DNA of 32,000 nucleotides from an uncultured Veillonellaceae bacterium. Lineage in GTDB: Bacteria; Bacillota; Negativicutes; Selenomonadales; Selenomonadaceae. A program made the translations under genes and the position numbers. Positions 3,171 to 25,961 of this stretch are shown piece after piece. Below the pieces are notes generated by a model. That model did no database searches. It saw nothing but the letters and a program-made list of their open reading frames with translations, and was not told the DNA's origin. The stretch spans positions 5,865 to 37,864 of the forward strand of contig OMZT01000027.1 in assembly GCA_900315615.1 (NCBI GenBank). The letters run 5' to 3'. Within the stretch, counting starts at the first letter, position 1; the number at the start of each line of letters is the position of its first letter.

Positions 3171-6100
3171 ATGAAGCACAGAAGGATCTACATAACTGCC
3201 ATAGTGGCAGCAGGCACGGTCTTGCTGTGCTTTTTTGCATTGCTGATGTATATGAGAAGTGCGGGATTTTCCGAGCAGGCTGCTAGGATCGTATCGGAAA
3301 AGGCGACGCAGACGCTTGAGACGCGCATTGAGCTTGGCAGCGTGAAGATTGACGACAATAAGGATATCGTCATCAATGATGCTGCGATATACGATAAGCA
3401 AGATAAGATCGTCGCAAAGATTCCTGAGGCTGTAGTAAAGCTTAGCTATATGGCAGCAATCAAGGGCGCATCTGCCGGCTCTGTGAGCGAGGTATCCGTG
3501 AAGAACCCTGAGGTCTGGCTAAGTGAACGGGATGATGGCAGCTGGAACGTGCAGGACCTCTTGAAGGAGAGCAGTGAGGAGAGCGGATTCCGCGGCAAGG
3601 TGAGGTTGAGCGGAGGTACCGTCACGGTTTCCATGCGTGGACAGACGCTGAAGCTGCGTCAGGTGGAAGGCACTGTCGATATGGCTGACAGCCCATCGGC
3701 AGATATAGATGTGGACTGCATGAGTATGTATTCTCCCATCCATGCTGAGGGAACCGTATCCTCTGATGTGCAGGATGTCAAAGTAACGATCGATGACGTG
3801 GGGATTGAGGATTACATGAAGTACCTCACGTTATTGCCGCCTCTGCCGGAGGGGATAGATATAAAGAGCGGCACGATAGATCACGCTGAGGCGTATATCC
3901 GTCATGATGGCGACGGACTAGCACTCAAAGGGCGTGCGGCTTTCCATGATGGCGCGGTGACCGCCATGGGAGTCGATATAGCTAAGCTGCAGGGACAGGC
4001 GAACTTCGACCAGTCGTCTGCCATGCTGTTCATCCATGCGGAGGCAGCTGGTGAGCCTGCGGCCATACATGGCAGGATAAGATGGGATGAGGAATCACCA
4101 AGGCTCGCCCTTGTGGCGGAGTCTGAGGGTTTTGATCCATCTAAGGTCATGGTAGATTTGCCGTTTGCAGGGAAGGTCTCCTTCCGTGCGAGCGTAGGCG
4201 GAACGCTCGATGCACCGGTCATCAGAGGCAAATTCGAGACGGCTGAGGCGGTCGCGTATGGGATTCCTCTGCAGGACGCGCGTGTGGATCTCACCTATGA
4301 TGGTATGGATGCCGATTTGCGCCATTTCGAGGCGGATATCCTCGGCGGTCATGCGGAGGGCGAGGGACGGCTACATATGGATGACCTCTCCTATGATCTG
4401 CACGTGAAGGCGGCAGGAATCGACATTGCAGGGCTGTCTGATCTGGTGGGGCAGGATATGGCCGGTACGGCAGATGGTGATATCGCACTCAATGGCGTCG
4501 GGACAGATACCGCTGGTATCTCGGTCTATGGCAGCGCTAGCATAAAGGATGGCAGGCTGAAGGGAGCCGAGTTCACACGGGCAGATGCATCATTCTTCGT
4601 GAGTGATGGTATGACCGTGATAGACGCGGCTAATGTCCTCTTCCCAGGTGGCGGAGAGATCGGCGCAACGGGGTCGATACGCAACGCAGATGAGATAGCA
4701 CTCGATTTCTATGGCGCGCATATAAACCTTCGTAATCTCGCGAACGCATTTCCAGACTATATAGATGCGGGCGGTATAGCGGATATCGATGGCTCGGTAC
4801 ATGGAAGCCTTTCCAATCCGATGGTAGAGGCCGATCTATCTGCAGTGGACGGGCATCTCTTCAAGCAGCCGTTTGAGCTTTTGCGTACGTCTGTGTCGGG
4901 CAGCCTTGATGGCATCGGTGTCGACTATTTCCAATTGGAGAATAACGGCAAAAATACATGGTATGTGAAGGGGTCTGTGGGCTTTACCAGAGATAAGAAG
5001 ATCGATCTACAGATAGATACGGTCGGTGCGCGTATGGAAGATATCGCGGCACTCGTAGCGCCAGATCAACCCATCACAGGTAATGTCGATAATATCATAA
5101 AGATAACGGGTACACTCGACAATCCGTCTGCTGTTGGATACGTCCATTTCTATCGTGGAAGCTATCGCGGCTATCTGCTTTCAGGTATGGATGGCGACTA
5201 TACATATAAGGATAAGGTCGTCACGGTGCAGGACTTCCATATTTTCTCACCGATTGTCGATATGGATCTGAATGGCACGATCGATCCGAAGTATGATATC
5301 AATATGAAAGTCGAGGCGCATGATATAGACCTGAAGCGCATGGCGTCAAGACTGCCATATCCTGTGGAGGGTCATGCAAAATTCTCAGGACTTATCGCGG
5401 GTAATGTGTCGGCACCTGTGTTCGATGGTAAACTGACTGGTGACAAGCTGACATTGAACGGTCAGGATATAGCGGATGTAAGGGGCGACGTGCATTACCG
5501 CGATCATATCGTCAGTGTCGAAGGCTTCACGTTCCACCAGAATGACGGTATCTTCGGGATGGACATGAAGGCAGGGCTCAATGATAAGAGCTTGTCCGGC
5601 AAGATCGATATCACGAACGGTGACGTACAAGCCATTGCCGCGTTCGCGGACCTTAAAAATGATATATTCACGGGCAGGCTTTCCGGTACGCTCGATATCG
5701 CGGGCACGATGGATAATCCAAAGGCACATCTCGAGGCCGTAGTGCCCGATGGCAAGCTCAGGGAGTATTCACTTACGGATGTTGCAGTAGATGCAGATTA
5801 TGAGGATGGAGTTTTGACGCTCAGCGAGTTCAGCGGACATCAGGATGATGGCTTCTTTATCGCTAGCGGTGTCATGGACAGTAACCGTGATATCGATGCC
5901 GAGGCTAATATCGAGAATGCTCCGCTGGGGCTTATTGCCGCATGTGCTGGCTCGAGTGCCAAGGTCAGCGGTACGGTCAATGCACAGGCAAAGATCAGTG
6001 GCAACCTCTCGAGCCCGCGTGCTGTGGTGACGCTGCAGGCGAAGAATGGAGGTGTCGGCACGGCGACGTTCGACAACCTCACGGGCGACTTGAACCTGGA

Positions 6101-7520
6101 TCATGGTGTTCTCGAGGTGCATGAGCTTCGTATGGAAAAGCAGGGGAAAGACAAGGTGTATAGCCTCAGTGCTGCGGGAACAGCACCTCTAAAGGCGATC
6201 ATGGCGAAGGATAACAACATAGGCAGCGCGTATGACCAGTTCAACCTGACGGTCAACCTCGAGAATGCTGACCTGGGACTTCTACCAGCACTTTCCCGGC
6301 AGGTAGACTGGGCGATGGGCCCTCTGACGGGCAAGTTGAACGTGACGGGCACGCTAGCAAGACCGCTCGTCAATGGCGAGGTTAAGCTGTCGGGTGGTGC
6401 CATGAAGCTGAAACTCCTGAAAGATCCAATCACGGATATGGAGTTTGATATAAAGGCAGCTGGAGACCGCCTAAACATAGAAAAGGGCTCGCTCAAAATG
6501 GGCGGCGGAAAGGCTGAACTGACTGGCAGCACGCTCTTTACGGGGAATGGTTTCAGCGGATATGATATCGCTCTAAAAGCCGATAAGCTCGGCGTGAACA
6601 GTACCGTATACAAGGGACCTCTTGATGGAGAGCTCAGACTGTCTGAAGGCGTTATAGGCAAGGGAAAGCCATGGGAGAAAACACTGCCAGAGCTTTCGGG
6701 GCATTTAGATATCAGCGATGTCACAATCTCAGTGCCAAGCCTGCCATCAGGCGATAGCGAGCTGCCGGATATCATTCTCGATTTTGATGTGAATCTCGGT
6801 AAGAAGGTACACCTTTACAGTGCGTCACTCTATGACATGTGGTTCAGCGGAGGCGTACATTTCGGAGGTACGACGAAGCATCCTAGGACCTCCGGAACCG
6901 TGAAGGTACAGAGGGGCTCTATCACCTACAACAACACGATATTCCGCGTGTCAGAGGGAGAAGCTTATTTCAATCAGGTTGATTCATTCCTGCCGAGCAT
7001 ACATTTCGTTTCATCGGCGCGCGTCAATAGGGTAAAGATATCCTTGACTGTTGACGGACCGCTTGAGCATATGGATTTCAAGCTTTCGTCGAGCCCATCG
7101 ATGAGTCAGACGGAGATCATACGCCTGCTGACATTCCATAACAGCAGCATGGATACGCTGGACTCGGAGCTGAATGCACAGGATCTCGTAAGCTTCGGTC
7201 TCAGGATGAGTGTCCTGAATGAACTGGAGAATTCGATGAGAGATCTTTTGCATCTCGATCAGTTCACGATATCAGGTGAGGCAGGTCATCTGTCTACGGA
7301 TAACAAGGGCGGCAGCAGACAGTCTCAAGACGTCGTCTACAGCGTTGAGATGGGTAAGTATATCGGCGATAAGGTCATGGTCAATTACAAACAGGCTTTC
7401 AATGATGATGAATACCGCGTCGGTATGATGTATGAGTTCAATGATAGATACAGTCTGATAGCCGGTCGGGATACGGAGAAGGGCTTCATGACGGGTATAC
7501 TTGCGAAGATAAGGTTCTAA
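3171..7520 (+). CDS. tamB: TamB / AsmA-like translocation-and-assembly-module protein
   Basis: 1449 aa. N-terminal signal anchor (IYITAIVAAGTVLLCFFALLMYM). The long beta-rich body carries recurring G-[TSN]-[LMV]-x-x-P motifs (GTLDAPVIRG, GSLSNPMVEA, GTLDNPSAVG, GNVSAPVFDG, GTMDNPKAHL, GNLSSPRAVV, GTLARPLVNG). DUF490-like C-terminus (...VMVNYKQAF..YRVGMMYEFNDRYSLIAGRD...). Confidence 0.85.
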   Translation: MKHRRIYITAIVAAGTVLLCFFALLMYMRSAGFSEQAARIVSEKATQTLETRIELGSVKIDDNKDIVINDAAIYDKQDKIVAKIPEAVVKLSYMAAIKGASAGSVSEVSVKNPEVWLSERDDGSWNVQDLLKESSEESGFRGKVRLSGGTVTVSMRGQTLKLRQVEGTVDMADSPSADIDVDCMSMYSPIHAEGTVSSDVQDVKVTIDDVGIEDYMKYLTLLPPLPEGIDIKSGTIDHAEAYIRHDGDGLALKGRAAFHDGAVTAMGVDIAKLQGQANFDQSSAMLFIHAEAAGEPAAIHGRIRWDEESPRLALVAESEGFDPSKVMVDLPFAGKVSFRASVGGTLDAPVIRGKFETAEAVAYGIPLQDARVDLTYDGMDADLRHFEADILGGHAEGEGRLHMDDLSYDLHVKAAGIDIAGLSDLVGQDMAGTADGDIALNGVGTDTAGISVYGSASIKDGRLKGAEFTRADASFFVSDGMTVIDAANVLFPGGGEIGATGSIRNADEIALDFYGAHINLRNLANAFPDYIDAGGIADIDGSVHGSLSNPMVEADLSAVDGHLFKQPFELLRTSVSGSLDGIGVDYFQLENNGKNTWYVKGSVGFTRDKKIDLQIDTVGARMEDIAALVAPDQPITGNVDNIIKITGTLDNPSAVGYVHFYRGSYRGYLLSGMDGDYTYKDKVVTVQDFHIFSPIVDMDLNGTIDPKYDINMKVEAHDIDLKRMASRLPYPVEGHAKFSGLIAGNVSAPVFDGKLTGDKLTLNGQDIADVRGDVHYRDHIVSVEGFTFHQNDGIFGMDMKAGLNDKSLSGKIDITNGDVQAIAAFADLKNDIFTGRLSGTLDIAGTMDNPKAHLEAVVPDGKLREYSLTDVAVDADYEDGVLTLSEFSGHQDDGFFIASGVMDSNRDIDAEANIENAPLGLIAACAGSSAKVSGTVNAQAKISGNLSSPRAVVTLQAKNGGVGTATFDNLTGDLNLDHGVLEVHELRMEKQGKDKVYSLSAAGTAPLKAIMAKDNNIGSAYDQFNLTVNLENADLGLLPALSRQVDWAMGPLTGKLNVTGTLARPLVNGEVKLSGGAMKLKLLKDPITDMEFDIKAAGDRLNIEKGSLKMGGGKAELTGSTLFTGNGFSGYDIALKADKLGVNSTVYKGPLDGELRLSEGVIGKGKPWEKTLPELSGHLDISDVTISVPSLPSGDSELPDIILDFDVNLGKKVHLYSASLYDMWFSGGVHFGGTTKHPRTSGTVKVQRGSITYNNTIFRVSEGEAYFNQVDSFLPSIHFVSSARVNRVKISLTVDGPLEHMDFKLSSSPSMSQTEIIRLLTFHNSSMDTLDSELNAQDLVSFGLRMSVLNELENSMRDLLHLDQFTISGEAGHLSTDNKGGSRQSQDVVYSVEMGKYIGDKVMVNYKQAFNDDEYRVGMMYEFNDRYSLIAGRDTEKGFMTGILAKIRF

Positions 7521-7521
7521 T

Positions 7522-8133
7522 ATGGATATAGCAGCATATATCAAAGAATTGAATAATATCAGTATGCTCAGCGAAACTGAGGAAAAGCAGCTTTGGGAGC
7601 AGTGCTGTGCGGGCGATGAGTCTGCCCGCCAACGTATCATAGAAGCATATCAGCCTTTGGTGTTCAAGACGGCTTTACCGTACAGGAGCATGGATCAGGT
7701 GATGGATATCATCCAGGAAGGAACTGTCGGGCTGATAGAGGCCGTTGACAAGTACAATCCGTCCAAAGGGGTGGCATTTAGCCTGTATGCTGTGCACCGC
7801 ATAAGAGGCCGTATGCTGGATTTCATCAGAAAGGAATGTGCGGGCACCGTATCGACTCTCAATTCGGAGGATGGTATCGAACCACAGGATACGGCTCCGG
7901 CTGTGCCTGAGCAGGCAGAGGAAAATTTTCTCGTTCAGACGGTGAAGTCTGCGATAGCCAGGCTCCCAATGAAGGAGAAAGCTGTGATAGAGGGCATATA
8001 TCTAAGGAGCCGTGAGGTATCTGATGTGGCTGAGAGCCTGGATATCAGCGCGTCGCATGTGTACCGCCTGCAGAAAAGCGGCGTGAGGCGCGTGCGCGGG
8101 ATGCTGTCCAGATTCATATATCAATGGAAGTAG
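7522..8133 (+). CDS. sigma-70-family RNA polymerase sigma factor, group-3 / FliA(sigma-28)-like, short region 3
   Basis: 203 aa. ATG 7522 lies 1 nt after the tamB stop (TAA 7518-7520). Region 2: IIEAYQPLVFKTA...DIIQEGTVGLIEAVDKYNPSKGVAFSLYAVHRIRGRMLDFIRKE. Region 4 HTH: LPMKEKAVIEGIYLRSREVSDVAESLDISASHVYRLQKSGVRRVRGML. Confidence 0.85.
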   Translation: MDIAAYIKELNNISMLSETEEKQLWEQCCAGDESARQRIIEAYQPLVFKTALPYRSMDQVMDIIQEGTVGLIEAVDKYNPSKGVAFSLYAVHRIRGRMLDFIRKECAGTVSTLNSEDGIEPQDTAPAVPEQAEENFLVQTVKSAIARLPMKEKAVIEGIYLRSREVSDVAESLDISASHVYRLQKSGVRRVRGMLSRFIYQWK

Positions 8134-8291
8134 TAGAAATACGCTAAAAAAGAGAGATATACCGAGAAAAATGTATATGATGCTGTTTTTTTGGTATATA
8201 CGGCTTGCAGTTATCATGAGATATATCGGATATATATATAAGAGTTGAAGGGGTTTCGGCTCTGTGTTTTTACTGGCAAGGGGGGATCTTT

Positions 8292-8834
8292 ATGCATGGT
8301 GGCAGACGTAATCTTAGAAAGCATATACGAGCTGCAAGGGACTGGCTGAGCCGTGCGGATGACTCACTTGGCAGGGAGAATGATGCGGCGGGTGAGCTTC
8401 ATCTAATGCTGGCCCGTGCTGAGATGCAGCGCGCCAGCGAATCTACAAAACCGCGCACGTTCTTGCGGAGGGCTCTGCCGCTGTGTACGGCGGCAATCAT
8501 AGCGGCGGTGGGTTTTTCCATATGGCACCACGCGTCAACGCAGCCGATGACAGAGCCTCCTTTAGAGGTGCAGCCTGTAGAGACCACAGAGGTGCACGCT
8601 GCAGTACCGCCACAGGAGCAGGCAGTGACGAAAGACGTGTCAAATGAAAAATACGTTCCTGTAGTGGCGAAAAAACAGGAAACAGTGTATAATAAGGAAT
8701 CAGTGTTGGATGAGAAGGCACAGCAAGCTCAGCAGCCTGCTGAGACCAGACGTGACACGGCAAAGCCAGCTCCTCCTGACGAGGCGGTACAGAAGCTCAT
8801 GCGTCAGGCGGGCAGGACACTTAAAGCACAGTAA
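8292..8834 (+). CDS. hypothetical single-pass membrane protein (anti-sigma-like topology)
   Basis: 180 aa with a strong SD (aagggggga) 5-6 nt before the ATG. The first ~60 aa are basic and helical. One TM helix (LPLCTAAIIAAVGFSIW). A P/E/Q/V/A-rich low-complexity C-terminal half follows. I recognise no family motif. Confidence 0.6.
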   Translation: MHGGRRNLRKHIRAARDWLSRADDSLGRENDAAGELHLMLARAEMQRASESTKPRTFLRRALPLCTAAIIAAVGFSIWHHASTQPMTEPPLEVQPVETTEVHAAVPPQEQAVTKDVSNEKYVPVVAKKQETVYNKESVLDEKAQQAQQPAETRRDTAKPAPPDEAVQKLMRQAGRTLKAQ

Positions 8835-8903: not shown

Positions 8904-11282
8904 TTGAGTACTAGGAGATACAGGGCATTCGTGGCAGCAGCGATCGTTGTTGGGGTTGCAACGGCTGCTGGCACAGCAGTGTATGCTGAGGGCGCGGTCA
9001 TAGCACCAGCACTGCCTCAGGATATGACGATAACGTCGGGAACCGCATCTTCATCTGGGAGCAGTGCGGAAGCCAAGAAGGGGAAAGACGCTGGACAGAC
9101 CTCTCAGACAGAGAGTAATGGAGAAAAGCCCACCGATAACACCACGGCACAGAGTGGTCAGACGGTCTTAGCACCGGCACTGCCGCAGGGCATGTCCATA
9201 AAGGGCGGCACGGCGTCACAGTCTGATATACTCACTGTAGACCCTAAGGCTCCTGATATAACAAACCCGAATGCGGAGGAAAAGCCCGCAGAGACAGCAC
9301 AAAAGATGGAGGCTGCACCAGCTGCAACGGAAGCAGCACCAACTGCACCGTCGCCAGCTGCAACAGAAGCTGCACCAGCTGCAACGGCACCAGCACCGGC
9401 TGCAACGGAAGCGGCACCAGAGAGTGCACCATCATCAGGGACACCGTCTGCTGGGGCTCAGTTACCTGCACCGACTCTGCCGTCACCATCAATGCCAGGA
9501 TCGTCATCGACAGATTTCGATTTCGGCACACCAAAGTCAGAGCGTGGCACCAGTGTGTCCGGCGTCGATGCCGACCCTAGAATGGTGGAATGGAATTCCA
9601 AACGCCCTGAGGAGCAGAAGATACATGAGCGTCTTCAGAAGATAGAGGGGAAGACAATCGTTGACGTCGTCTGTGAAGGTGCAAGCGAGTCTACGCTTGC
9701 TACCGCGAAAGCAGCACTGACAGAGCGTGCAGGGGACAAGTTCAGCGTGGATGTCATGGAGAACGACCGCTCTGCGATATATTCGACAGGCTATTTCTAC
9801 GATCTCTATCCGAGCTTTGAAGAGGTGCCAGAAGGCGTTGTCGTGACCTTCCATCTGCTGGAGAATCCTATACTGAAGTCTGTTGATATCGCCGGCAATA
9901 CAGTTGTGAAGACAGAGACACTCAGGTCGCTGCTCACGGTGAAGACTGGAGCAATCATGAACAGCGCCGAGCTGCAGCGCAATATCAGGGATATGCAGCA
10001 GGAATACCGCAAGGATGGCTATATACTTGCAAAAGTAAGTGACCTGCGTATGGATATGGATGGCTCCTTGCATATAAGGATCAATGAGGGAACTCTCGAG
10101 GGCTATAAGATAAAGGGCAACAAGAAGACGAAGGATTATGTTATCCTGCGTGAGATGAGGCAGAAAGTCGGAGAGCCGTTCAACGCGACGAAAGCGCGTC
10201 GAAGCATGCAGCGCGTGTATAACTTGGGATTCTTCGAAGATGTCAACATGAAGCTCAATCCTGGTATAGAGCCGAATGCCGTCGTGCTCGAGATAGATAT
10301 CAAGGAAAAATCAACGGGTACATTCGGTGTAGGTGCAGGCTATAGCAGTGAAGATGGCATCATCGGTATGTTGAACCTCGGTGATACGAACTTCAGGGGC
10401 ACTGGCGACGCCGTGAATATCATGTACGAGATGAGCGGCGACGATGATGATGCACATGGATATACATTCTCATATCGTCATCCGTATATGGATAAGCATG
10501 AGACGACGGGTACGTTCCGCATATATAACCGTACCTATCAGTATGATGACTACGATTCGGACGGCGACTTCATCGAGGAATACATGAGGAAGTACAAGGG
10601 CGGCGAGATAACGGTCGCAAGGCCTGTGAGTGAGTATTCGACGAATGTCATAACGCTCAGGAACCGCGATGACAAGTACGTCAAGTACGAGGAAGACGAG
10701 GGCGGCATAGACCGCAGCGGCGAAAACTACAGGTGGTGGCGTGAGAAGAACTTCGGCCTCACGAGAAGTGTCACGCTTGCACATATCACGGATAACCGCG
10801 ATAATATATATTTCCCGACGATGGGCGGCCGTATAGAACTTTCGACTGAGATAGCGGGCTTCGGAGGAGATTTTGACTTCCAGAAGTACGTGATAGAGGA
10901 TCAGCGCTATTTCAAGGTCGGTCATGCGCAGGTCATAGCTACGCGCGCACAGGCCGGCTATGGTCACGGCAGTATCTCTGAGTCCAACCAGTTCCGTATC
11001 GGTGGTCAGGACACGATCAGAGGCTATCGTGAGCAACAGTTCCGCGGCAATAAGATGCTGCTGGGAACCGTTGAGTACCGCTTCCCGATAACAGGAAAGG
11101 TGCAGGGCGCGCTCTTCACAGATTGGGGTAATGCGTGGGAGGATAAAGGCGCTCCAGACGAGGTGCATGGCAGCTTCGGCGCAGGTCTTTCATTGAATAC
11201 GCCGCTCGGTCCTATCCGTATAGATTGGGGTCGTGGCTCGCAGGGTAGCCGTGTGCACTTCATGGTTGGTAATTCGTTCTGA
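8904..11282 (+). CDS. bamA: BamA/Omp85 outer membrane protein assembly factor with long disordered N-terminal extension
   Basis: 792 aa. TTG start with SD gggagga at 8888-8894. Signal peptide (...AAGTAVYA/EG). About 200 aa are low-complexity. Three POTRA-sized units span aa ~248-468. The Omp85 barrel starts at KSTGTFGVGAGYSSEDG and contains RIGGQDTIRGY. It ends ...RVHFMVGNSF. Confidence 0.9.
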   Translation: MSTRRYRAFVAAAIVVGVATAAGTAVYAEGAVIAPALPQDMTITSGTASSSGSSAEAKKGKDAGQTSQTESNGEKPTDNTTAQSGQTVLAPALPQGMSIKGGTASQSDILTVDPKAPDITNPNAEEKPAETAQKMEAAPAATEAAPTAPSPAATEAAPAATAPAPAATEAAPESAPSSGTPSAGAQLPAPTLPSPSMPGSSSTDFDFGTPKSERGTSVSGVDADPRMVEWNSKRPEEQKIHERLQKIEGKTIVDVVCEGASESTLATAKAALTERAGDKFSVDVMENDRSAIYSTGYFYDLYPSFEEVPEGVVVTFHLLENPILKSVDIAGNTVVKTETLRSLLTVKTGAIMNSAELQRNIRDMQQEYRKDGYILAKVSDLRMDMDGSLHIRINEGTLEGYKIKGNKKTKDYVILREMRQKVGEPFNATKARRSMQRVYNLGFFEDVNMKLNPGIEPNAVVLEIDIKEKSTGTFGVGAGYSSEDGIIGMLNLGDTNFRGTGDAVNIMYEMSGDDDDAHGYTFSYRHPYMDKHETTGTFRIYNRTYQYDDYDSDGDFIEEYMRKYKGGEITVARPVSEYSTNVITLRNRDDKYVKYEEDEGGIDRSGENYRWWREKNFGLTRSVTLAHITDNRDNIYFPTMGGRIELSTEIAGFGGDFDFQKYVIEDQRYFKVGHAQVIATRAQAGYGHGSISESNQFRIGGQDTIRGYREQQFRGNKMLLGTVEYRFPITGKVQGALFTDWGNAWEDKGAPDEVHGSFGAGLSLNTPLGPIRIDWGRGSQGSRVHFMVGNSF
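9312..9428 (+). repeat. imperfect in-frame tandem repeat encoding (P)AATEAAP units inside bamA
   Basis: The DNA repeats gcaccagctgcaacggaagc / gcaccagctgcaacggcacc / ggctgcaacggaagcggcacc. The protein reads AAPAATEAAPTAPSPAATEAAPAATAPAPAATEAAPES. Confidence 0.7.
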
Positions 11283-11369: not shown

Positions 11370-12662
11370 TTGAGGTTTTTAGAGAGATACGCTGCTATAG
11401 CTTTGATCATGGCCGTTCTCATGCTTGAGGTACATACGGTGCAGGCGGCATCCGAAGAACGGATAGAGAGCATTGATGTATCGGTAAGTGCAGGCAGCCT
11501 TCCACCTGCAGTTGGAAAGCGCATGGAGGACAGTATACGCGTGATCGCTTCGCAGCTGATGGATGGAAAGACCATCAAGGCTGCTGAGGAATCTAAGGAG
11601 CATGACGCATCTCTCATACATGAAGTGTTTGATAAGCTGCTCGTGGGATATACGGTCGAGGATGTAAAAGTCGTGCCGGGCAGGACGGCTTCGATACAGG
11701 TATCTCTCATACCGTGGGACTATATCATACAAAGGACTGTGGTATCGGTAGATGTCGAGGGAATGCCGGATGAGGTACGTACCATGGTGCTTCATGACGC
11801 GAAAGGGCTGGAAATGGTGTTCGATTCCGTCATGACGGGATTGCCAACGGCCGCTGCGGACTGGACCAATGGCGTATTGAAACATAATGTCGACAGCTTC
11901 ATGAACGAGCATTTGCCAGAATTCAGGGCTGACTTTGAGGTAGAGCCGGATGAGATAACGAAGGTTCATGTGGTGCTTTATCCGAGACTTCCAGTAGTGA
12001 GGACGACGGATCTGTCGATGCGCTCCGATACCGTACCGAATCTCTTCCTTGTGAATCATAGGAAACTGATGGAGGAGAGGACTCATCTCTTCCTCGGGGT
12101 ACCGTCTGCTTTCGTTGGGCGTCATAGGCAGGAGATAGAGAAAATGCTTGCAGAGACGCTTGACTCCAGGAGAGAGTTCATGGCAGCGGGAATACATACG
12201 AAGGCTTCTATCGAGCCCGGCGAGTATATGACGATCATGCTCAGGTCTGATACCGCGAAGTATCGCTGGAGGATAGAGGGCTATGCGGATGTTTCGCGTG
12301 ACGGAAGCGGTGACCGCGATACGCGGGTTCGTATGTATGCGGGCGGAATGCTCAGCAGCAGGGATATGCTATATGCGAGGCTCGATTTCTATCCGCAAGC
12401 GGTCGATTGGAAATTTGCCGCAGGGTATGAGAGACGGCTCAGGAAATGGCTTTTTGCGGATTTCGTGTTCGATGCAGAGTATGGCAAGGCTGAGCTTGGC
12501 ATGAGGGCGATACTTTCACCATTTTGGCAGCTTAGATATGAATACCGTTATGCAGATCATATGGGTGAGGGAGCATTACGCTACAAGCTGCATGATTTCT
12601 TGAGCCTGGAGTATGCTGCTGATCCTGATGGACGCTGGCTGCGTGTTATCGGTGATTTCTGA
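11370..12662 (+). CDS. hypothetical secreted protein with OMP-type C-terminal beta region (unknown family)
   Basis: 430 aa. TTG start with SD ggaggtgagg at 11356-11365. Signal peptide (AAIALIMAVLMLEVHTVQA/AS). The N-terminal domain is ~290 aa of mixed alpha/beta character. The last ~135 aa have aromatic-alternating strands (YRWRIEGYADV, VRMYAGGML, LYARLDFYP, WKFAAGYERR, LFADFVFDAEY, WQLRYEYRYA, ALRYKLHDFLSLEYA) and end RWLRVIGDF. Confidence 0.65.
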   Translation: MRFLERYAAIALIMAVLMLEVHTVQAASEERIESIDVSVSAGSLPPAVGKRMEDSIRVIASQLMDGKTIKAAEESKEHDASLIHEVFDKLLVGYTVEDVKVVPGRTASIQVSLIPWDYIIQRTVVSVDVEGMPDEVRTMVLHDAKGLEMVFDSVMTGLPTAAADWTNGVLKHNVDSFMNEHLPEFRADFEVEPDEITKVHVVLYPRLPVVRTTDLSMRSDTVPNLFLVNHRKLMEERTHLFLGVPSAFVGRHRQEIEKMLAETLDSRREFMAAGIHTKASIEPGEYMTIMLRSDTAKYRWRIEGYADVSRDGSGDRDTRVRMYAGGMLSSRDMLYARLDFYPQAVDWKFAAGYERRLRKWLFADFVFDAEYGKAELGMRAILSPFWQLRYEYRYADHMGEGALRYKLHDFLSLEYAADPDGRWLRVIGDF

Positions 12663-25788: not shown

Positions 25789-25961
25789 TGATTTGCATTA
25801 CCAAGTAAATAGGAGCAGGATACTGCTCAGTCCCCAAAATGGCAAAATACGCCTGTAAATCGACTGCACAGATTTGTGCATATGGAGGGATTATATCATA
25901 AAAGTCCAGGGAATCTGTACGGAATATTGTACAGAGCCGGAATAGATAGGGGATGCAGATT

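Follow-up and report, generated by a model that had tools for sequence, protein, structure and literature searches.

A sigma factor and a membrane protein between tamB and bamA: a candidate control circuit for outer-membrane assembly

Why should the genes for a sigma factor and a membrane protein be wedged between the outer-membrane genes tamB and bamA in a rumen diderm Firmicute? To address this question, we analysed a stretch of 32,000 nucleotides carrying the pair (the window) together with the corresponding loci of its relatives, asking what the sigma factor is, what its neighbour (X) is, and whether the two could act on the genes around them.

A conserved core of tamB, sigma factor and X

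The open reading frames and the sequence around them place the TAA stop of tamB at 7518-7520, and the ATG of the sigma gene lies 1 nt past it. A single transcription unit, mlaD-tolC-tamB-sigma, probably covers this part, with tamB as its last large gene. The genes that matter here, all on one strand, are the following.

3171..7520, + strand: tamB, 1449 aa (Pfam TamB, E 4e-38)
7522..8133, + strand: sigma-70-family factor, 203 aa (Pfam Sigma70_r2 and Sigma70_r4)
8134..8291, + strand: spacer between the sigma gene and X, 158 nt, about 35% GC, with a promoter-like region conserved in relatives
8292..8834, + strand: X, SonB by position, 180 aa (AlphaFold model and family alignments)
8904..11282, + strand: bamA, 792 aa, TTG start (Pfam Omp85 and POTRA), the first large gene 3' of X
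11370..12662, + strand: SonA-like protein, 430 aa, without a Pfam domain; SonA of PMC13018214 by position

Every junction described in the first-pass annotation was found again, from the tamB stop and sigma start through the 158-nt gap to the 180-aa protein and bamA, and the gap is indeed AT-rich (35.4% GC, the window as a whole having 51.3%).

The arrangement is not peculiar to this genome. The comparison took in 80 genome loci at species level, found by seeding with the sigma factor and drawn from Selenomonadaceae and some Sporomusaceae. tamB lies directly 5' of the sigma gene in 76 of the 80, and the order tamB-sigma-X is kept in 74, two further loci being interrupted by contig ends; bamA follows 3' of X in 72, and a SonA-like gene found with phmmer is syntenic in 66. 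When loci were seeded with X instead, the sigma gene stood directly upstream in 3 of 3. The conserved three-gene core is tamB-sigma-X, just 5' of bamA-sonA-skp in the outer-membrane cluster. In the bacterium BFN5 a short TamB, the sigma factor and X stay together and bamA is not adjacent; the link between sigma and X is therefore tighter than that between X and bamA. The spacer measures about 150-180 nt in most loci and 13-35 nt in the oral Selenomonas clade. Four rumen MAG loci have the sigma gene and no X nearby.

This tamB/bamA neighbourhood, present in 74/80 genomes, bears out the earlier view that the locus is neither flagellar nor sporulation-related. In fact, the sigma gene occurs in non-sporulating Selenomonadaceae and in Sporomusaceae alike. 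The module does not extend to all Negativicutes, as a search for synteny across the class had envisaged: conservation holds for the Selenomonadaceae and Sporomusaceae loci just counted, but in V. parvula TamB (Vpar_0526) adjoins BamA (Vpar_0527) with no gene between them (PMC5491611). According to PMC13018214, neither V. parvula nor A. fermentans has SonA or SonB, and the presence of the two proteins does not follow sporulation.

A two-domain sigma factor and a bitopic membrane protein

Within the sigma-70 family the sigma factor stands apart as a two-domain protein, built of region 1.2, sigma2, a linker and sigma4, and it reaches no specific family threshold. Pfam recognizes Sigma70_r2 (58.6 bits, cutoff 24, E 5e-16) and Sigma70_r4 (33.5 bits, cutoff 24.1, E 3e-8) and finds no Sigma70_r3. 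The AlphaFold (AF2) model, with a mean pLDDT of 83, folds sigma2 at residues 18-110 and sigma4 at 128-202. Together, region 1.2 and sigma2 span about residues 3-108 (nt 7528-7845); where region 3 is expected there is a disordered acidic linker (110-127, nt 7849-7902), directly followed by sigma4 (nt 7903-8127). Its residues 3-35, aligned with region 1.2 of SigA, resemble group 1/2 sigmas. Alignments to PDB sequences match region 2.3-2.4, GVAFSLYAVHRIRGRMLDFIRK, with GTAFTTYAVQRIRGAMLDELRS of E. coli FliA and with WhiG, unlike SigA, and the region 2.4 motif RIRGxMxDxLR is present (aligned to E. coli FliA 6pmi_F and 9wsm_F and to WhiG 6pfv_A). The first-pass reading of a FliA-like region 2.4, a lacking region 3 and an intact region 4 is thus confirmed by Pfam, AF2 and the PDB alignments.

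Which sigma is it, then? Among NCBIfam models only the generic TIGR02937 scores above cutoff (95.5 bits vs 42.9). The FliA/WhiG models stay below theirs (TIGR02479, 78.3 bits vs 189.6; NF005413, 78.8 vs 201), as do the SigB/F/G model (82 bits vs 234), the SigI models (47-49 bits vs 244-260) and, by far, those for SigK, SigE and SigG. The proposed classification by HMM therefore succeeded for sigma-70 regions 2 and 4 and stopped short of any specific family. The label "sigma-28-like" survives for region 2.4 only, given a FliA/WhiG score of about 78 bits where 190 are required, a region 1.2 of group 1/2 type and no sigma3. We set FliA/WhiG membership aside: the region 2.4 motif is there, but the score lies under the cutoff, sigma3 is missing and the neighbourhood is not flagellar. 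ECF (group 4) membership was set aside as well; sigma2 and sigma4 alone, joined by a short linker, are an ECF-like trait, but region 1.2 is present and the sequence and structure neighbours are non-ECF. Indeed, the closest PDB neighbours by sequence and fold are SigA, FliA, RpoS, RpoH, SigD and SigB, and Foldseek returns group 1-3 sigmas. At E<1e-30, 34 clusters belong to the family, and its regions 2.4 and 4.2 are near-invariant between clades.

What of X? The family data describe bitopic inner-membrane proteins with the N-terminus inside and a cytoplasmic helical hairpin. In the AF2 model, helices 3-28 and 33-51 form the hairpin (about 3-51, nt 8298-8444), and residues 58-83 (nt 8463-8540) the TM helix. 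After it come a linker (84-160) that is disordered at 90-158 in the model and variable in the family alignment, and a conserved C-terminal helix at 162-179 (nt 8775-8828). Mean pairwise identity is 0.58 at the N-terminus, 0.30 in the TM helix, 0.17 in the linker and 0.58 at the C-terminus. Across 78 family members, K+R number 4.3 before the TM helix and 0.8 after it, which places the N-terminus inside. The first-pass annotation had seen the topology of a membrane anti-sigma factor here, and the model and this charge asymmetry uphold it; its "low-complexity" tail holds in part, and X has a conserved C-terminal motif, PPDxxxQKLMxxAGxxLRxQ. Members from Sporomusaceae-type genomes have the same N- and C-terminal motifs.

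X does share traits with the functional class of anti-sigma factors: N-in topology, a single pass, a conserved cytoplasmic N-terminus and an adjoining sigma gene. As already noted at first pass, it carries no known anti-sigma signature. The HxxxCxxC motif is not in its sequence; Pfam and NCBIfam find no RseA_N, ZAS/zf-HC2, RskA, RsgI_N or FlgM domain in X, nor any match for the family (20 members, E up to 5); and a PDB profile search and Foldseek return nothing. A profile search with X collects 546 proteins, all "hypothetical" and without a Pfam domain.

By position, X is SonB, an identity resting on position and family (A. longum SonB is F7NM24). SonB was named in February 2026 and described as a "putative OM lipoprotein"; the order in Acetonema longum is sonB-bamA-sonA-skp1, and SonB, BamA and SonA are reported as co-expressed and syntenic (PMC13018214). 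X likewise lies immediately 5' of bamA in the order sonB-bamA-sonA-skp and has a predicted TM helix. The first-pass annotation took the module for a plausible undescribed one; by position, X already has a name, but the adjacent sigma gene is not mentioned in PMC13018214. We did not retain the lipoprotein reading: a lipobox pattern occurs in 4/78 members (any Cys in the TM helix in 20/78), some 60 conserved charged residues lie ahead of the TM helix, the N-terminus is inside, and A. longum is stated to lack Lol.

The spacer motif and the proposed circuit

A conserved two-block motif, T(C/G)AA-N15-nnGGATTATA, stands 30-46 nt 5' of X in most of the spacers between the sigma gene and X. Its register is fixed in about 41 of 45 non-redundant spacers; by leave-one-out, 37/45 are significant, and in 35 of those the motif ends 30-46 nt 5' of the X start codon. 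Sporomusaceae-type loci keep it too, as does Mitsuokella, which is non-motile. Geometry and core agree with the sigma-28 consensus, TAAA-N15-GCCGATAA. Within ±6 kb of the sigma gene strong matches gather upstream of X and elsewhere occur at the chance rate. No copy lies upstream of the sigma factor's own operon, so the sigma factor seems not to control its own expression. In the oral Selenomonas clade the two-block motif is missing within ±6 kb, and the bamA promoter is a canonical TTGACT-N16-TAGAAT. In the window we find the following elements.

8157..8199, + strand: long A/U-rich hairpin just past the sigma stop (RNA fold of the spacer, z-score -2.7)
8192..8200, + strand: extended -10-like element of housekeeping-sigma type, TGGTATATA, from sequence reading only
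8203..8234, + strand: the spacer's two-block motif copy, GCTTGCAG...TCGGATATA, with a good -10-like and a poor -35-like part
8241..8263, + strand: terminator-like hairpin in the leader, inside an insertion unique to the window
25864..25895, + strand: strongest motif copy of the window, CTGCACAG...GGGATTATA, in the 164-nt fabZ-lpxA spacer

At 4.3 bits the spacer copy falls well short of the training median (17) and is not significant by leave-one-out; it lies 58 nt from the ATG because of the window-specific insertion. TGGTATATA corresponds to a conserved upstream block of the relatives, TGnTAtAAT-GGC. The first hairpin may, as folded, mark the end of the tamB-sigma transcript. The terminator-like one is probably not meaningful: one such site was found where 1.0 is expected by chance, and the insertion is missing from relatives. 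The copy before lpxA, 57 nt 5' of the start codon, reaches 17.1 bits, and 0.04 matches as strong are expected per shuffled window; in three relatives the fabZ-lpxA spacer has weaker -10-like GGAnTATA elements, and conservation of the site is weak.

To explain these results we propose, at a probability of roughly 0.4, that the sigma factor directs the motif promoter before X(sonB)-bamA-sonA and that X is its membrane anti-sigma, in negative feedback. The sigma factor would be produced together with TamB and would bring RNA polymerase to the sigma-28-like promoter T(C/G)AA-N15-nnGGAT(T/A)(A/G)TA 5' of X. Initiation by the holoenzyme at the GGATTATA motif would yield transcription of X(sonB)-bamA-sonA(-skp); the copy before lpxA would probably serve as another promoter of this kind. 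The cytoplasmic hairpin of X would retain the sigma factor at the inner membrane, and its long disordered periplasmic tail, with the conserved amphipathic helix at its end, could sense how the BAM/TamB machinery is faring or be cleaved by proteases. With X itself heading the target operon, the loop would be closed. How the genes are arranged, which domains and topology their products have, and how far synteny, motif and family extend are shown here; we infer the use of the motif promoter, the binding of the sigma factor by X and the nature of the signal; the sigma/anti-sigma reading of the pair is plausible, if unproven. Were it true, the two proteins could constitute a dedicated control circuit for outer-membrane assembly.

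In weighing this circuit we counted for it, besides the synteny, the topology of X and the conservation of the motif set out above, that the N-terminus and C-terminal helix are the most conserved parts of X (0.58 vs 0.17 in the linker), that only 13-35 nt separate the two genes in oral Selenomonas, that a 17-bit motif copy precedes lpxA and a FliA-like region 2.4 fits a sigma-28-type motif, that SonA/SonB are reported missing from A. fermentans and from V. parvula, which also has no gene between tamB and bamA (PMC13018214, PMC5491611), and that SonB, BamA and SonA are reported as co-expressed (PMC13018214). Against it we counted the lack of detectable similarity between X and any anti-sigma family, the weak motif copy of the window and the motif-less surroundings of the oral Selenomonas sigma gene, the lack of a copy upstream of the sigma operon, the weak conservation of the lpxA site, the four rumen MAG loci with no nearby X, and the chance that the motif belongs to another sigma or DNA-binding regulator.

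Could X serve the envelope itself? The sigma factor might regulate the outer-membrane cluster with X/SonB as a structural or accessory envelope protein rather than an anti-sigma, for instance one anchored in the inner membrane that spans the periplasm to partner BamA, SonA or TamB, as PMC13018214 implies, and whose hairpin serves another partner or self-association. We hold this to be somewhat unlikely. The co-expression and synteny of SonB with BamA and SonA (PMC13018214) speak for it, as do a C-terminal helix and long linker suited to reaching an outer-membrane partner, the missing resemblance to anti-sigma domains and the separate transcription units, about 160 nt apart, of most species. 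However, X adjoins the sigma gene even where bamA is not adjacent (BFN5) and abuts it in oral Selenomonas, the "OM lipoprotein" label misfits on the grounds given above (4/78 lipobox, N-in, no Lol in A. longum), and a 50-residue cytoplasmic domain at 58% identity needs a cytoplasmic partner, for which the adjoining sigma factor is obvious.

We consider it improbable that the pair is a sigma/anti-sigma pair with its regulon elsewhere, the spacer motif being read by the housekeeping sigma, a true FliA, or a repressor or activator. The oral Selenomonas sigma factor has identical DNA-recognition helices, yet bamA there has a housekeeping promoter and no motif nearby; an orphan-sigma clade has the same helices in unrelated contexts, a housekeeping-type extended -10-like block is also conserved in the spacer, and the window's own copy is weak. 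Against this stand the N15 geometry and GAT core of sigma-28 type, matching the FliA-like region 2.4, the motif in non-motile Mitsuokella, and the confinement of strong matches near the sigma gene to the site 5' of X. That the protein is simply the flagellar FliA of this organism, or else a sporulation sigma, here by chance, is hardly credible, even if its region 2.4 is FliA/WhiG-like and homologues go by "RNA polymerase sporulation-specific sigma factor" in some sources. The specific models fall far short (78 vs 190 bits for FliA/WhiG, 82 vs 234 for SigB/F/G, SigK/SigE/SigG far below cutoffs), sigma3 is absent, the tamB-bamA position is fixed in 74/80 genomes, and neither the gene, shared by non-sporulating Selenomonadaceae and Sporomusaceae, nor SonA/SonB follows sporulation.

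Comparison with known systems

Returning to the circuit as we propose it, its parts recall several known systems. One of them is SonB/SonA of Acetonema longum, with the same order of X, bamA, a 430-aa protein and skp and a predicted TM helix. The SonB family, like X, occurs in Selenomonadaceae and Sporomusaceae and is missing from V. parvula; SonB is a putative OM lipoprotein in PMC13018214, whereas the X family has no conserved lipobox and is predicted to sit N-in in the inner membrane. The Dma proteins offer an analogy in concept only: there the extracytoplasmic part of an anti-sigma reaches the outer membrane and couples its state to transcription, as X might. Dma proteins partner ECF sigmas, and part of each is an outer-membrane beta-barrel, whereas X offers no more than a disordered linker and a short helix (about 20 residues).

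FliA/FlgM shares the region 2.3-2.4 motif YAxxRIRGxMLDxxR, the geometry of T(C/G)AA-N15-..GAT.., which resembles TAAA-N15-GCCGATAA, and, as proposed here, a candidate anti-sigma gene placed behind a promoter that its own sigma would read, the situation of flgM in class 3. The sigma factor differs from FliA in lacking sigma3, in a model score far under cutoff and in its non-flagellar locus; X is a membrane protein without a FlgM Pfam match, whereas FlgM is soluble and secreted. SigI/RsgI of Bacilli and Clostridia likewise joins an atypical sigma without a normal sigma3 to an N-in single-pass partner with a short cytoplasmic N-terminus (about 50 residues) and a sensor tail outside the cytoplasm, but the SigI models give 47-49 bits vs 244-260 and X has no RsgI_N match.

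RpoE/RseA of E. coli differs in its sigma, since ours is non-ECF by sequence (it possesses region 1.2, its region 2.4 is of FliA type and its structural neighbours belong to groups 1-3); in its partner, X having no RseA_N, RskA or ZAS domain; and in its layout, the sigma gene here ending the tamB operon rather than sharing one autoregulated operon 5' of X. The core sigma-E regulon includes bamA-skp-lpxD-fabZ-lpxA-lpxB. In both cases, a two-domain sigma stands beside a single-pass, N-in inner-membrane partner whose N-terminus (putatively here) binds it, the proposed targets (bamA, skp and the lpxA region) overlap that core regulon, and the loop would be one of negative feedback.

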